DNA from: Eledone cirrhosa
Taxonomy: Eukaryota
Length of the DNA: 64,000 nt
Direction: 5' to 3'
Assembly (NCBI GenBank): GCA_964016885.1
Contig: OZ024742.1
Location: forward strand, 270,196,001-270,260,000
Shown here: positions 2,780-25,061 of the stretch, in pieces
How positions within the stretch are numbered: position 1 is the stretch's first letter
How the letters are laid out: every line of letters begins with the position of its first letter
Translations under genes and position numbers: made by a program
Notes under the pieces: generated by a model
Told to the model about the DNA's origin: nothing
The model's database searches: none
What the model saw: the letters and a program-made list of their open reading frames with translations, nothing else

Positions 2780-5700
2780 TTCTTCTGGTTTTATAATTTA
2801 CAAAGTTTTACCAATAGAGAGAGAGTCGGTTTCTAACATAGACACAAGCCTCTCTCATTGGAATTTACACAACATCAACTAGGTAGATATGTATGTATGC
2901 ATGCATGTGTAGATATGGCTGTTATTGTATGTGTGGATGTGGATGTTTTGAGTTGTATGTGGGCATGTGTATATGCTTTGTATCTGTACATGTGTATATA
3001 GAGTTATTGGATGCAACCTTTTTTTAATGTTTTACATATTTTACTGTTCCATTAATGGATTGGACTTGTAGTTTCCTAACTGGTTGTGTTCTTTCTGTTC
3101 CTGTGAAGCCTAGCTTCTCAAGATTTGTATTGAGGCAGTTACTAACACATCCCAGTGCCCCAATAATCACAGGCATAAATCTGAAGATGTAATCAGGGTG
3201 GAGTATCTGCAGATTTCTCATCAGTTCTGCATAAATATTCTCCTTTTCACTAATCTTTGATATTTTATTGGCATCTGCTGGGCAGCTAATTTCCACTACT
3301 GTGCATGTTTTCTTCTCCCTGTCCCATATCATAATACCTGCTCTGTTATGCCTGCATTTTATTGGGGTTTTTACTGAAACATTCCACCAGTAGTCTTTCA
3401 TATTATGTACATGGATGTCTTCCACATTGTTGTAGCTTTTAATGTGTTTATTTTCTTTTATTACGAACTGCATTGTACAGTGTTTTGGCCACTACATCTT
3501 GCCTCACAGGTAGATAGTACCGCGATGATATCTTTCGACAGCTACTGATGACATGGGTCATATCCTCGATGTTAGTTCTGCAGAGTCTGCACTTGTTATC
3601 ACATCTAGGTGTTTTGCCTGCATCCCTATCTCTTTTGTGAATCAGGTATTTCGTGCTAATCTCCTGTTCTTGGATTGCAAAAGCGTATCCTTAAAAGTGG
3701 GAGCCAATATAGCGGTTGTTGGTCCAAGATAGACTACTTTCCTTATCTATATTACTCTCACTCTGGAGCTTCCTGGCAACATATCCATGCATGATTTTTT
3801 GCTGATAGGCATGCAGTTTTTCATCCATGTATTCACCGCGATACTGCTGAGCGAAACCCCTGGGTGTGAGTTTTTGATTATCACACAGCGAATATCTCTC
3901 AAGGAGTTCCTTCCCAACTCTCATGATCTTATCTGTTTCATGCAGATAGACTTGCTCGAGAAGCGGGCTCCTACGCTTCGAGGTTCGTAGATGTTGTCGG
4001 AGAGATATGATGCGATATTCAAATGTTGTCTGGACTAATGTTAGGCCTCTGCCTCCCTGCTTACGTTTCAAGTAAAGGCGGTCTATGTCACTGTTGATGT
4101 GGAGGTTTCCGGTGTTGTTCAGTATTTTTCGAGTTCCAACATCAACTGATCGGATTTCGTATATCGTCCAATTGAGTATTCCAAATGTTGGTGTTAGGAC
4201 AGGCACAGCAAAAACATTGTGAGCCACTGTTTCGTTTTGCGCAGAGAGTTCCGATGACCAGATCTTTCTTAATCGGGCGTAGTATTCCCTGGTTACGCGT
4301 TCTTAATTACAGATACCATTATAGGATACGTTCCCATCTATCCCCAGGTATCTGTACCAGTTCTCATCAGATATCAGTGAAACAGTTAGACCATTGATGA
4401 CAATGTTGCTAGATTGGGTTGTTGTTTTTCCCCGCTTTACAGTCATGTATGAGCATTTATCTTGACCAAACTCCATTCCTATATCCTTTGAGAACGTTAT
4501 AACCAGGCCAAGATTTTTCTTCATCCCATTCATGTTCTTGTCATAGAGTTTCAGATCGTCCACAAAGAAGTTATGGGTTAGGTTCGTATTTCTGTCCTCC
4601 TGTGAGCCAATGATGTATCCCTCACATTTCTTGAGCAGAAAGGACAAGGGGTTTAATGACAAGATGAACAATATCACAGAGAGACTGTCCCCCTGAAATA
4701 TACCCCTGCAATATTTTATTTTATCAGTGAAAATAGAGTCCTCCCTCTCTGTCTTTAACCTTAGGATAGTAGCCCAAGAAGAAGACAGCCTCTCTATGGC
4801 TCTGACAATAATGGGACTTTAGCAAGTTGGAGGGCCTCTATCATCCAAGAGTGGGGAACAGAATCGAAAGCTTTCTTGTAGTCTAGCCAGACTGTAGTCA
4901 TATTCCTCCTAAGTTGTCGCACATCCGACATCGCAGTTTTGTTGATTACGAGTTGTTCAGCACATCCCCAAACCCTTTTCTTTCCAGTTGCTTGTTCATC
5001 TGTGATGATGGTATTATGTTCACAGTGATCTTGGAGGAATAGGTTCAGGCATGCTGTATACATCTTATACATCAGGTTCTGGCATGCAATGGGTCGGTAG
5101 TTTTTTGCCAAGTGGATGTCTTTGTTCTTGGGGTCCAGTAACGTTTGTGCTAATGTCAACCATTCTGGTATAAGTGTATATCCCTTAAGAACTTGATGGT
5201 AGAGGTCAGTAAGATACCTCCGATAGAATATTAGTTTTTTGTACCAGTAGCCGACACCCATGTCTCTTCTTGGCCTTTTTCTTATCTTGGAGATTTCCTA
5301 TCACAGTCTCAAGGGTACCCTCACTTATTTCGTATGTTTTTGTTGTAGTGTAGGAGCAATAGTTCTTTCGGATTTCTCTTAGCCAAACTGCATCTTGGTT
5401 GAAATTCTTCTTTTCTTCCAATATTTTTCTCCAAAAGGAATCTATGTTTTTCTGGGATGGGGCCTCAGTGACACTTATTATTTTGCCCTTCACATCTCTA
5501 TAGACTGATGTTTGGTTTCGTCTGAATCTTTTATTAAGCATTTTTCTCTCATCTACCTTCCTCAGGTATCGGCGTTTTTCGCTAACAGCTCTCAATTCTT
5601 GTTTGAGGGTGATCAGCTTATATTGGAGAGTTCTGGTTCGACTGTTACCAAACATCGCCTTTATTTTATTTTTCACTCTTTGTTGGTGAGGAGTGAGGTT

Positions 5701-7442: not shown

Positions 7443-7492
7443 GATATAGATAGGTAAATATACACGGGTGTGTATGATTGTGTATAGAAGAT

Positions 7493-7885
7493 TATATTAA
7501 TAAGAGGAATTCCAACTTTGTCTGATTTACTCGTTTTATTTACAATCCTTTAAAATATATATATAATATGGTATTATAATGAAATAGTATGATAGAATAT
7601 TAAATTCTAAGTGTTAATTGAACAAGTACTTTCATGCTTTTGCAATCTTCAGGTTCATGATATGTGGTGACAGTCGAGTTTGCAATTTTCAACTGTTGAA
7701 AATTGCAAACTCGACTGTCACCACATATCATGAACCTGAAGATTGCGAAAGCATGAAAGTACTTGTTCAATTAACACTTAGAATTTAATATTCTATCATA
7801 CTATTTCATTATAATACCATATTATATATATTTTAAAGGATTGTAAATAAAACGAGTAAATCAGACAAAGTTGGAATTCCTCTTA

Positions 7886-7893
<8 letters not shown>
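7493..7893. mobile_element. ~200-bp-arm near-perfect palindrome, PLE pLTR-like, with an HHR in each arm
   Basis: Arms mirror around T7694 (ttttcaac-t-gttgaaaa); right end runs into (TA)n. Confidence 0.85.
7731..7769 (+). ncRNA. Minimal type I hammerhead ribozyme (mirror copy 7619-7657, minus strand)
   Basis: tgaac-CTGAAGA-t-tgc gaaa gca-t-GAAA-gtac-TT-gttca; palindromic stem III AGTACT. Confidence 0.8.
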
Positions 7894-20536: not shown

Positions 20537-20544
20537 ATATATAT

Positions 20545-20574
<30 letters not shown>

Positions 20575-20575
<1 letters not shown>

Positions 20576-23500
20576 ACAATTAAGTCAAAGATGTACATCC
20601 ATATATGTATACTGAAATACTAGTATGTATATGAATACACACACGTATACATATGTAGATGTACCAAGTTTTTTTTCACTGATCACTTTACTGTGAGTGG
20701 CCAGCTATTCTGTATGTAAACACACAGACAAACCGGTTTTTAGAGTCATACTGGTTTTTGAGGAAACACCTTTCCTCTATTCTCCAGAAAGCCAGACAAG
20801 GAATATTGAACTAGTTTCGTTGTTGTTACAACTCATCAGCAATATTTACCTATCTTCCGGCCTCTCTAGAGAATCGTAAAAGCACATATCGCTATATGCT
20901 TTTTCTATGAAAATTAGTAGTGGGCAGACCAACCTGCATAGAGTGTGAGTAAGTACCGGTTCAACGGAGACGATAAAAACAAATAACGAAACGAAATTAA
21001 ATTTCGTTTCGTTTGTAACTCACTTTTGTATGACTGACGCTCAAACAATTAAGTCAAAGATGTACATCCATATATGTATACTGAAATACTAGTATGTATA
21101 TGAATACACACACGTATACATATGTAGATGTACCAAGTTTTTTTTTCACTGATCACTTTACTGTGAGTGGCCAGCTATTCTGTATGTAAACACACAGACA
21201 AACCGGTTTTTAGAGTCATACTGGTTTTTGAGGAAACACCTTTCCTCTATTCTCCAGAAAGCCAGACAAGGAATATTGAACTAGTTTCGTTGTTGTTACA
21301 ACTCATCAGCAATATTTACCTATCTTCCGGCCTCTCTAGAGAATCGTAAAAGCACATATCGCTATATGCTTTTTCTATGAAAATTAGTAGTGGGCAGACC
21401 AACCTGCATAGAGTGTGAGTAAGTACCGGTTCAACGGAGACGATAAAAACAAATAACGAAACGAAATTAAATTTCGTTTCGTTTGTAACTCACTTTTGTA
21501 TGACTGACGCTCAAACAATTAAGTCAAAGATGTACATCCATATATGTATACTGAAATACTAGTATGTATATGAATACACACACGTATACATATGTAGATG
21601 TACCAAGTTTTTTTCACTGATCACTTTACTGTGAGTGGCCAGCTATTCTGTATGTAAACACACAGACAAACCGGTTTTTAGAGTCATACTGGTTTTTGAG
21701 GAAACACCTTTCCTCTATTCTCCAGAAAGCCAGACAAGGAATATTGAACTAGTTTCGTTGTTGTTACAACTCATCAGCAATATTTACCTATCTTCCGGCC
21801 TCTCTAGAGAATCGTAAAAGCACATATCGCTATATGCTTTTTCTATGAAAATTAGTAGTGGGCAGACCAACCTGCATAGAGTGTGAGTAAGTACCGGTTC
21901 AACGGAGACGATAAAAACAAATAACGAAACGAAATTAAATTTCGTTTCGTTTGTAACTCACTTTTGTATGACTGACGCTCAAACAATTAAGTCAAAGATG
22001 TACATCCATATATGTATACTGAAATACTAGTATGTATATGAATACACACACGTATACATATGTAGATGTACCAAGTTTTTTTTCACTGATCACTTTACTG
22101 TGAGTGGCCAGCTATTCTGTATGTAAACACACAGACAAACCGGTTTTTAGAGTCATACTGGTTTTTGTGACTCTAAAAACCGGTTTGTCTGTGTGTTTAC
22201 ATACAGAATAGCTGGCCACTCACAGTAAAGTGATCAGTGAAAAAAAACTTGGTACATCTACATATGTATACGTGTGTGTATTCATATACATACTAGTATT
22301 TCAGTATACATATATGGATGTACATCTTTGACTTAATTGTTTGAGCGTCAGTCATACAAAAGTGAGTTACAAACGAAACGAAATTTAATTTCGTTTCGTT
22401 ATTTGTTTTTATCGTCTCCGTTGAACCGGTACTTACTCACACTCTATGCAGGTTGGTCTGCCCACTACTAATTTTCATAGAAAAAGCATATAGCGATATG
22501 TGCTTTTACGATTCTCTAGAGAGGCCGGAAGATAGGTAAATATTGCTGATGAGTTGTAACAACAACGAAACTAGTTCAATATTCCTTGTCTGGCTTTCTG
22601 GAGAATAGAGGAAAGGTGTTTCCTCAAAAACCAGTATGACTCTAAAAACCGGTTTGTCTGTGTGTTTACATACAGAATAGCTGGCCACTCACAGTAAAGT
22701 GATCAGTGAAAAAAAACTTGGTACATCTACATATGTATACGTGTGTGTATTCATATACATACTAGTATTTCAGTATACATATATGGATGTACATCTTTGA
22801 CTTAATTGTTTGAGCGTCAGTCATACAAAAGTGAGTTACAAACGAAACGAAATTTAATTTCGTTTCGTTATTTGTTTTTATCGTCTCCGTTGAACCGGTA
22901 CTTACTCACACTCTATGCAGGTTGGTCTGCCCACTACTAATTTTCATAGAAAAAGCATATAGCGATATGTGCTTTTACGATTCTCTAGAGAGGCCGGAAG
23001 ATAGGTAAATATTGCTGATGAGTTGTAACAACAACGAAACTAGTTCAATATTCCTTGTCTGGCTTTCTGGAGAATAGAGGAAAGGTGTTTCCTCAAAAAC
23101 CAGTATGACTCTAAAAACCGGTTTGTCTGTGTGTTTACATACAGAATAGCTGGCCACTCACAGTAAAGTGATCAGTGAAAAAAAACTTGGTACATCTACA
23201 TATGTATACGTGTGTGTATTCATATACATACTAGTATTTCAGTATACATATATGGATGTACATCTTTGACTTAATTGTTTGAGCGTCAGTCATACAAAAG
23301 TGAGTTACAAACGAAACGAAATTTAATTTCGTTTCGTTATTTGTTTTTATCGTCTCCGTTGAACCGGTACTTACTCACACTCTATGCAGGTTGGTCTGCC
23401 CACTACTAATTTTCATAGAAAAAGCATATAGCGATATGTGCTTTTACGATTCTCTAGAGAGGCCGGAAGATAGGTAAATATTGCTGATGAGTTGTAACAA

Positions 23501-24756
23501 CAACGAAACTAGTTCAATATTCCTTGTCTGGCTTTCTGGAGAATAGAGGAAAGGTGTTTCCTCAAAAACCAGTATGACTCTAAAAACCGGTTTGTCTGTG
23601 TGTTTACATACAGAATAGCTGGCCACTCACAGTAAAGTGATCAGTGAAAAAAAACTTGGTACATCTACATATGTATACGTGTGTGTATTCATATACATAC
23701 TAGTATTTCAGTATACATATATGGATGTACATCTTTGACTTAATTGTTTGAGCGTCAGTCATACAAAAGTGAGTTACAAACGAAACGAAATTTAATTTCG
23801 TTTCGTTATTTGTTTTTATCGTCTCCGTTGAACCGGTACTTACTCACACTCTATGCAGGTTGGTCTGCCCACTACTAATTTTCATAGAAAAAGCATATAG
23901 CGATATGTGCTTTTACGATTCTCTAGAGAGGCCGGAAGATAGGTAAATATTACTGATGAGTTGTAACAACAACGAAACTAGTTCAATATTCCTTGTCTGG
24001 CTTTCTGGAGAATAGAGGAAAGGTGTTTCCTCAAAAACCAGTATGACTCTAAAAACCGGTTTGTCTGTGTGTTTACATACAGAATAGCTGGCCACTCACA
24101 GTAAAGTGATCAGTGAAAAAAACTTGGTACATCTACATATGTATACGTGTGTGTATTCATATACATACTAGTATTTCAGTATACATATATGGATGTACAT
24201 CTTTGACTTAATTGTTTGAGCGTCAGTCATACAAAAGTGAGTTACAAACGAAACGAAATTTAATTTCGTTTCGTTATTTGTTTTTATCGTCTCCGTTGAA
24301 CCGGTACTTACTCACACTCTATGCAGGTTGGTCTGCCCACTACTAATTTTCATAGAAAAAGCATATAGCGATATGTGCTTTTACGATTCTCTAGAGAGGC
24401 CGGAAGATAGGTAAATATTGCTGATGAGTTGTAACAACAACGAAACTAGTTCAATATTCCTTGTCTGGCTTTCTGGAGAATAGAGGAAAGGTGTTTCCTC
24501 AAAAACCAGTATGACTCTAAAAACCGGTTTGTCTGTGTGTTTACATACAGAATAGCTGGCCACTCACAGTAAAGTGATCAGTGAAAAAAAACTTGGTACA
24601 TCTACATATGTATACGTGTGTGTATTCATATACATACTAGTATTTCAGTATACATATATGGATGTACATCTTTGACTTAATTGTTTGAGCGTCAGTCATA
24701 CAAAAGTGAGTTACAAACGAAACGAAATTTAATTTCGTTTCGTTATTTGTTTTTAT
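20575..24756. repeat. Palindromic tandem array of a 469-bp HHR-containing unit (retrozyme-like): ~3.4 units, inversion at 22167/22168, ~5.5 units
   Basis: Unit starts at 20575, 21044, 21514, 21982; reverse-complement units follow; near identity; (TA)n on both flanks. Confidence 0.97.
22539..22583 (+). ncRNA. Type I hammerhead ribozyme of array 1 (plus copies start 22539, 23008, 23477, 23946, 24414; minus copies start 20802, 21272, 21740)
   Basis: aatattg-CTGATGA-gttgt aaca acaac-GAAA-ctag-TT-caatatt; intact core, GUU cleavage triplet. Confidence 0.92.
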
Positions 24757-25061
24757 ATATATATATATATATATATATCATCTTTTAAAAGGTAATATTT
24801 GAAGGTCTAATTAAACTTTAATTAGTTACTTACCTAGCTGTGTGATTACACACTTTACAAATTATCCCCTATGATTGTTTCATGTGTTTATTTTATATAT
24901 ATATATATATATGTCAATCAATATCTAGTTGATATATATATATATATATATATATAACTGGTTGTAAGGCGTCCACAAACGATCAGCTATATATGTGTTT
25001 ATTGAACAATGAAAAGTCGAAGACATGAAGTTTATTAATTCATTATTATACCCTCTTTGTA

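Follow-up and report, generated by a model that had tools for sequence, protein, structure and literature searches.

The question raised by this locus is why two palindromic arrays of ribozyme-motif repeats stop at the same two points of their repeat unit, neither of which is the predicted ribozyme cut site. The window, the 64-kb stretch of the Eledone cirrhosa genome that was analysed, contains two head-to-head palindromes, A1 (20575-24756) and A2 (51165-56445), both set in (TA)n. The units are 469 nt long in A1 and 474 nt in A2. The sense strand points outward in both arms of each palindrome, and thus both outer ends of an array correspond to RNA 3' positions.

Two head-to-head arrays of ribozyme-motif units

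Units were numbered from the first base after the predicted hammerhead ribozyme (HHR) cut, and an end was taken as the last base of the longest exact match. The outer ends fall into two classes, a short site (S) and a long site (L), and each palindrome has one of each: unit positions 234 (S, window 20575) and 305 (L, window 24756) in A1, and 263 (S, window 51165) and 318 (L, window 56445) in A2. The features are as follows (window coordinates):

20537..20574, unstranded: A1 left flank, (TA)n target
20575..22167, minus strand: A1 left arm, 3.4 units of 469 nt, sense outward; outer end S, unit 234
22167..22168, unstranded: A1 head-to-head centre, unit positions 49 and 61; blunt, zero overlap
22168..24756, plus strand: A1 right arm, 5.5 units; outer end L (TTTAT, 303-305)
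24403..24474, plus strand: hammerhead of the last A1 unit, predicted as type I, with its CTGATGA core at 24421 and the cut predicted at 24451/24452
24682..24686, plus strand: site S within the last A1 right-arm unit, unit 231-235
24686..24756, plus strand: A1 'tail', 71 nt from S to L; right end only, missing from the left end
24716..24744, plus strand: GAAA..TTTC hairpin of A1; it forms one arm of a three-way junction in the predicted fold, and the stem that closes this junction depends on bases 3' of L
24757..24778, unstranded: A1 right flank, (TA)n target; pure repeat, so that the duplication length is unreadable
51155..51168, plus strand: A2 target-site duplication, left copy; longest match 14 nt, 7 nt unambiguous
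51165..54398, minus strand: A2 left arm, 6.8 units of 474 nt; outer end S (~259-263)
54409..56445, plus strand: A2 right arm, 4.3 units; outer end L (316-318)
56083..56145, plus strand: hammerhead, predicted as type I, in the last complete unit of the A2 right arm; cut predicted at 56127/56128
56391..56445, plus strand: A2 'tail', 55 nt; contains the hairpin 56411-56432
56443..56456, plus strand: A2 target-site duplication, right copy

The original prediction had both right arms ending after TTTAT (24756 and 56445). These coordinates hold, and the L sites of A1 and A2 align exactly at TTTAT/CG, where the slash marks the end. It had also placed the left ends just upstream of CATAC, and in both families S indeed follows CTTA.T, 13-14 nt upstream of CATAC. 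The left ends do lie earlier in the unit, by 71 nt (A1) and 55 nt (A2) rather than by the 60-70 nt first given. The sequence TATATATGTATACT is found at both A2 edges (51155-51168 and 56443-56456); thus the left A2 end, read as ttaagta, keeps its coordinate of 51165, but its last bases are partly target sequence and the actual S junction is as much as 4 nt before that point. The GAAA..TTTC hairpin noticed between the two ends is present in both families (A1 265-293, A2 284-305). That the right arm is the long one and the left arm the short one in both palindromes is, in contrast, chance orientation: among young A1 pairs elsewhere in the genome, S is on the left in 10 and on the right in 10.

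Nineteen hammerhead cores occur in the window, one per unit, and are predicted to be of type I with a palindromic CTAG helix III. Compared with Rfam Hammerhead_HH9, the A1 hammerhead scores 37.7 bits (E 1.6e-8), below the gathering score of 52, and the A2 hammerhead, at E 0.024 only, also lies below it; an Rfam search at the gathering score gave zero matches for the arrays. Stop-to-stop frames of 100 aa are absent from A1, and A2 has only 101-aa frames per unit and frames in the TA repeat. Neither array has an open frame for a reverse transcriptase (RT) or a GIY-YIG endonuclease; such frames sit elsewhere in the same genome. The A2 HHR 40-mer has 10,122 exact, dispersed matches in the genome, and a non-A2 HHR pattern has 9,292, mostly A1-like among the 100 listed. 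Folded as circles, the units reach minimum free energies of -151.6 (A1) and -155.9 kcal/mol (A2), with z-scores of -9.0 and -11.2 against 30 shuffles. Metazoan non-LTR retrozymes likewise consist of non-coding units in tandem that carry a type I HHR, the palindromic helix III of which is weak (PMC7229834, PMC7761336), and share the copy numbers in the thousands, the stable circular fold and the presence of Penelope-like elements (PLEs) alongside (PMC7229834, PMC7761336, bioRxiv 10.64898/2026.07.22.740005). Our units exceed the 170-400 nt given in PMC7229834 and fall within the 51-972 bp of bioRxiv 10.64898/2026.07.22.740005. Judged by their sequence, the A1 and A2 arrays are non-coding ribozyme-motif repeats of a non-autonomous, retrozyme-type element.

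The window has two further features of note. One A1 unit carries G438A in hammerhead helix I (23952), and broken reverse-transcriptase frames (RVT_1, E ~1e-9), likely of a decayed LINE, lie on the minus strand at 4303-5297.

Paired outer ends and target duplications across the genome

Junctions were mapped in three samples. For young A1 copies we took 33 of the 34 sites seen among 150 listed matches (166 others were unlisted), plus the window array; because the search used a single full unit that ends at L, this sample is mildly biased toward one-unit copies. The A2 sample comprised 40 of ~49 clusters among the first 100 of 10,122 pattern matches on C1 (31 taken in order from the start and 9 multi-hit clusters from further on), plus the window array, and the A1-like sample comprised 19 of ~25 clusters among the first 100 of 9,292 matches. 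The latter two samples were picked by the HHR motif, independently of the ends.

The original prediction had expected each arm to end at one defined site unlinked to the HHR cut, and both parts are borne out. The outer ends lie in an S or L interval in 149/163 sampled cases (54/57, 33/35 and, for A2, 62/71), where the intervals together cover 23 of ~470 positions and were drawn after the first sample had been seen. None of the 163 lies within 6 nt of the predicted HHR cut. The 14 outliers comprise assembly gaps, truncations by other insertions, A2 ends that fall in a TA tract inside the unit, and S ends that BLAST put in the wrong place (L061, L068). The A2 S calls adjoin this internal TA tract and are less secure, and 9/71 A2 ends fall outside both intervals. 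When both ends of a two-armed insertion lie in an interval, one is S and the other L in 47/48 (p 1.7e-13 against a 50:50 null); a further 15 pairs, with one end outside the intervals or beyond the fetched stretch, were left uncounted. The sole exception, L082, is a possible S+S pair with an ambiguous right end. Three seemingly one-armed copies hold S stubs of 8-11 nt. The L arm is the longer one in 12/22 insertions and the two arm lengths are uncorrelated (rho 0.06), which argues against two tightly coupled RTs.

Locus L154 had been considered as an array ending near the HHR cut; it is in fact truncated at +18/19 by other sequence. At L151/L152 (G000:C1:5738331-5752439) one arm has 31 units and the other 0.7 unit, and two adjacent units are shorter by 5 nt.

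In short-read contigs from one independent sample (two runs), (AT)n loose ends occur at L (24287) in 12 contigs per run and, among the ends listed, at S (24213, 24217) in 1-3 contigs. Because these contigs end at the same L and S, the junctions are not an artefact of this assembly.

The target sites carry a second regularity. Of the 49 two-armed insertions examined, 15 are informative because the TA alternation is interrupted in both flanks. A direct duplication of at least 9 bp is found in 13 of these 15, compared with 21/210 mismatched pairs; the longest match is 11-16 bp with a mode of 12, apart from one of 25 in a periodic flank. When microhomology is allowed for in L053, L035, L055, L033 and L064, the permitted duplication lengths overlap at 10-12 bp. 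This duplication, which fixes the geometry of the cut, had been missed in the earlier reading. A direct duplication together with arms that are both sense-outward would imply two 3' overhangs, each running into sequence of cDNA polarity. The argument made earlier that the palindromes are no sequencing fold-back is strengthened by these duplications and by the independent contigs.

One could suppose that satellite DNA or an assembly artefact is at work, with TA-like bases of the unit recombining or mis-joining with (TA)n. Both sites are indeed TA-rich, and some A2 ends collapse into the internal TA tract. However, the non-TA targets L053 and L064 have the same ends and clean duplications, many other TA-rich stretches of the unit are unused, the junctions recur in the independent contigs, PLE families of unrelated sequence obey the same rule (see below), and the one-of-each pairing would be left unexplained. 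This explanation is refuted in the main, and we give it almost no weight. The two fixed end sites, one per arm, are real and genome-wide.

Of the TA microhomology to the target that had been proposed, a short one is found at L. All 43 pure-(TA)n junctions at L keep register with UAU 303-305 and none is out of register; 37 have five T, 6 have three T and none has four. This pattern suggests a primer pairing of 1-3 nt with UAU.

At the centres, the overlap between the arms averages 1.6 nt compared with 0.75 by chance (p 0.005, n=15). Six more insertions have centre inserts of 4-30 nt, some copied from nearby unit sequence, and three were unscored. The centre of one insertion (L031:4969-5225) has an extra jump (337-469, 1-76, then 418-469), either a template switch or a short duplication.

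These centres bear on a reading with a single target-primed event. The cDNA would fold back on itself at the centre, or prime itself there, after which the endonuclease would resolve this DNA intermediate at the other site, so that the tail would mark a cleavage and not a second priming. Self-priming (PMC3846280) and endonuclease-mediated resolution (PMC8557442) have both been proposed for PLE inverted repeats. Such a course would account for the centre microhomology and for the shared haplotype of the two arms described below, and L039 has equal inner ends in the hairpin, while L045 has a mirrored variant. Against it, the inner ends of the two arms are equal in only 1/24 young A1 pairs, variants are unmirrored in L039, L042 and L044, the longer arm can be at either site, and one-armed copies end at either. 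Moreover, both tail borders are RT start sites in vitro (PMC11167929). We regard a single folded-back event as improbable.

Template continuity and the predicted fold around S and L

The inner ends show what the RT passed through. They are uniform along the unit in all three samples (KS p 0.54, 0.73, 0.15), and 3/166 lie within 6 nt of the HHR cut compared with 4.2 expected; the pile-up at the cut that a linear monomer template would give is absent among the 166. Thus, copying runs through the predicted HHR cut site. The original prediction of an intact circular or multimeric template holds as far as continuity across the cut is concerned; the template may be a circle or an uncleaved multimer, and some arrays are mosaic.

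The two arms of an insertion resemble each other more than they resemble other arms (0.003 vs 0.024 in 36 A1 insertions, 0.006 vs 0.027 in 17 A2 insertions), a comparison that left out 10 loci with several or interrupted insertions and 4 with too little overlap. In six insertions a variant is fixed in every scored unit of both arms, and in four of the six it is private among the sampled insertions. In L165, A339G is present in 18/18 units and A343G in 19/19 over both arms; other fixed cases are A5G in L059 and T6C in L070. Of the fixed variants 5/9 are A>G, compared with 6/66 of the changes confined to one unit (post hoc p 0.0025); this hints that an edited RNA was copied many times. A stepwise A>G series is also seen at A1 unit 344-345 (window 24326-24327), in which older subfamilies have AA, most young copies AG, and the window and four other insertions GG; the position is in a predicted stem, and the series possibly reflects RNA editing.

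Other arrays are mosaic: L156 has three linked variants in 2/6 scored units, L039 has a period of 2, and L110, L042, L044 and L049 are further cases. A variant occurs in only some units of both arms in 5/57 two-armed insertions. Thus, a single monomer circle fails for these arrays unless conversion or template switching followed. Conversion between the arms at a later stage can also make them similar, and it blurs the circle and multimer readings alike.

In another version of the same priming at S and L by a PLE, the RNA that is copied is a linear multimer left uncleaved, or a pair of RNAs from one source array, and the long arms grow later by unequal exchange. The mosaic arrays and period-2 unit variants fit this version, as do the uncorrelated arm lengths. 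Unprocessed RNA was the main substrate in vitro, with multi-copy mRNA rather than a circle being proposed (PMC11167929), and local tandem amplification is favoured in bioRxiv 10.64898/2026.07.22.740005. On the other side stand the variants fixed in all units of both arms, private in four of the six and biased to A>G, and the arms of up to 31 units, which would need equally long uncut transcripts. The units also fold as stable circles, and related retrozymes accumulate as circles (PMC7229834). We consider the linear multimer unlikely, though less so than the fold-back event. A 503-nt circularly permuted monomer contig was set aside as evidence for a circle, as tandem-repeat DNA yields the same.

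In the predicted fold, two hairpins of a three-way junction are joined by a U-rich, single-stranded linker that contains L; S is located 5' of this junction, in the loop of a small hairpin or next to it. The GAAA..TTTC hairpin, put forward earlier as a candidate RT-recognition signal, is one arm of this larger predicted junction, and autonomous families with other sequences share the same kind of ends. The closing stem is predicted as AGUGAG/CUCAC in A1 and A2, AGUGGG/CCCACU in an old A2 copy and GAGCGA/UCGCUC in A3 (a third family, see below), a covariation that comes from single folds, as the cross-family MAFFT alignment of the S-L region is too poor for pair counts. Local folds of the region are modest (z -3.3, -2.1, -1.4 and -1.9).

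Penelope-like elements of the same genome and the proposed pathway

A search of the genome for GIY-YIG gave 10,597 candidates, 150 of which were scored, and long frames carrying both RT and GIY-YIG were found. In three RT/GIY-YIG families the two-armed copies have one S and one L in 6/6, 6/6 and 3/3 cases (15/15 in total), and their tails measure 68, 41 and 45 nt. The corresponding count is 6/6 in a fourth family, in which no frame was seen. These pairs were counted by eye, with tandem duplicates counted once. The autonomous families (L131:7924 and 2945 on the minus strand, L136, L150:8300-8753 on the minus strand, L186, L198, L199 and L203) have L ~25-30 nt upstream of the ATG and a predicted hammerhead with the core TTGA.AA instead of CTGA.GA and a CCGG palindrome. 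HHRs are present in PLE pLTRs, and a U3-A8 variant like the TTGA.AA core is described (PMC4209133). L131, from the family whose tail is 68 nt long, has a CxxxxCxxC motif ahead of the endonuclease, which is assigned to Neptune and Nematis (PMC8557442). The window itself holds a small two-armed stub of an autonomous PLE family (7448-7893, HHR core at 7736), with the left arm ending at its own family's L and the right arm at its own S. PLE-type families are nested in one another's (TA)n tracts at L136, L140, L142, L148 and L170, so that each insertion makes new targets.

An autonomous partner of A1 and A2 was sought by similarity. Across 80 GIY-YIG-linked or HHR loci (~9 families), BLAST showed no similarity between either array and PLE sequence, and no pLTR similarity to an autonomous PLE was seen in these loci, with 150 of the 10,597 candidates scored. 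One HHR family first taken as the partner proved to be a third non-coding relative, A3, laid out as A1 and A2 are (L140:1672-2237, L143:4569-4815, L145:4200-4760, L150:3189-3585). Its S site, TTACATTTATT/G, resembles those of A1 and A2.

A1 and A2 share with PLE-mobilised copies the one-end tail, the inverted 5'-truncated arm, the short target duplication and the microsatellite (TA)n target. Their footprint is a Penelope tail on a non-autonomous retrozyme-type element. This correspondence with the published tail (PMC11167929, PMC8557442) was overlooked in the earlier reading, and to that extent the two-site signature is already known. Purified PLE, which is predicted to act as a dimer, cuts and extends both strands (PMC11167929). 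In vitro, Poseidon PAc of Anolis starts reverse transcription at two adjacent internal sites that bound the tail, downstream of the HHR and with no need of its cleavage; its targets are AT-rich, and sequence 3' of the sites is needed (PMC11167929). That report finds start sites that do not differ between the strands and no primer-template homology, whereas our L junctions are locked in the UAU register; as far as its available text goes, it does not treat paired site use or circular templates. Genomic PLE copies show head-to-head arms, a one-end extension, microsatellite targets and a short duplication, of 8-10 bp in Adineta (PMC8557442, PMC3846280). Unlike them, A1 and A2 have non-coding multi-unit arms, a tail of 55-71 nt instead of 30-40 and a duplication of ~10-12 bp, and the one-of-each rule, near-strict here, is given as 'often' or 'optionally' in those papers. 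For retrozymes, mobilisation by PLEs has been proposed from co-occurrence and pLTR similarity, and the accessible parts of the retrozyme papers do not describe palindromic insertions, fixed ends or target duplications (PMC7229834, PMC7761336, bioRxiv 10.64898/2026.07.22.740005). According to PMC7761336, retrozymes lack any motif that would point to the mobilising element.

The arrangement recalls twin priming. In L1 twin priming, both strands of a staggered cut prime on the RNA, giving an inverted arm with microhomology at the centre; the internal position used by the second primer varies, and the arms are free of overlap. A1 and A2 differ in having two constant sites with 55-71 nt between them, and in having one arm repeat the sequence of the other. 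A literature search gave no account of PLE twin priming, paired site use or palindromic retrozyme insertions, although older Penelope reviews may hold one. Relative to the literature found, the strict one-of-each pairing, the stagger and the presence of both on retrozyme arrays are new.

Because A1 and A2 carry the same footprint as PLEs of the same genome, a PLE enzyme is likely to start on both sides of a staggered cut, with a continuous and probably circular RNA as its template. Twin priming at two internal sites, whatever the template, has our considerable confidence. The fuller reading, in which a Penelope-like RT/GIY-YIG enzyme primes on both sides of one staggered cut and copies an uncut, probably circular RNA, seems to us fairly probable. 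On this reading, a PLE protein dimer would bind the RNA around the S-L segment and nick both (TA)n strands ~10-12 bp apart, leaving two 3' overhangs. One overhang would prime at L, through 1-3 nt of pairing with UAU, and the other at S. Both RTs would pass the HHR cut site, copy from 0.1 to ~31 units and stop at random; the two cDNA ends would then join by microhomology or short templated inserts, and fill-in would yield a head-to-head palindrome with a tail at one end only. Failure of one primer would leave a one-armed copy ending at L or S.

Two matters are stated as open in the papers cited: how PLEs form inverted arms with a one-sided tail, and which enzyme moves animal retrozymes. The array ends are a direct genomic footprint that ties retrozyme arrays to the PLE machinery. 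They also provide numbers for the existing in vitro PLE assay, namely starts at 231-235 and 301-305 of a 469-nt RNA, with one start per strand and nicks 10-12 bp apart. A more specific reading, which we hold only tentatively, is that the PLE dimer sits asymmetrically on one RNA motif, offers one start to each strand of a cut staggered by a helical turn, and sends both RTs rolling on ribozyme-made circles. If this is true, twin priming would be the normal Penelope pathway, and the tail, the inverted arm and the spread of retrozymes would be explained together.
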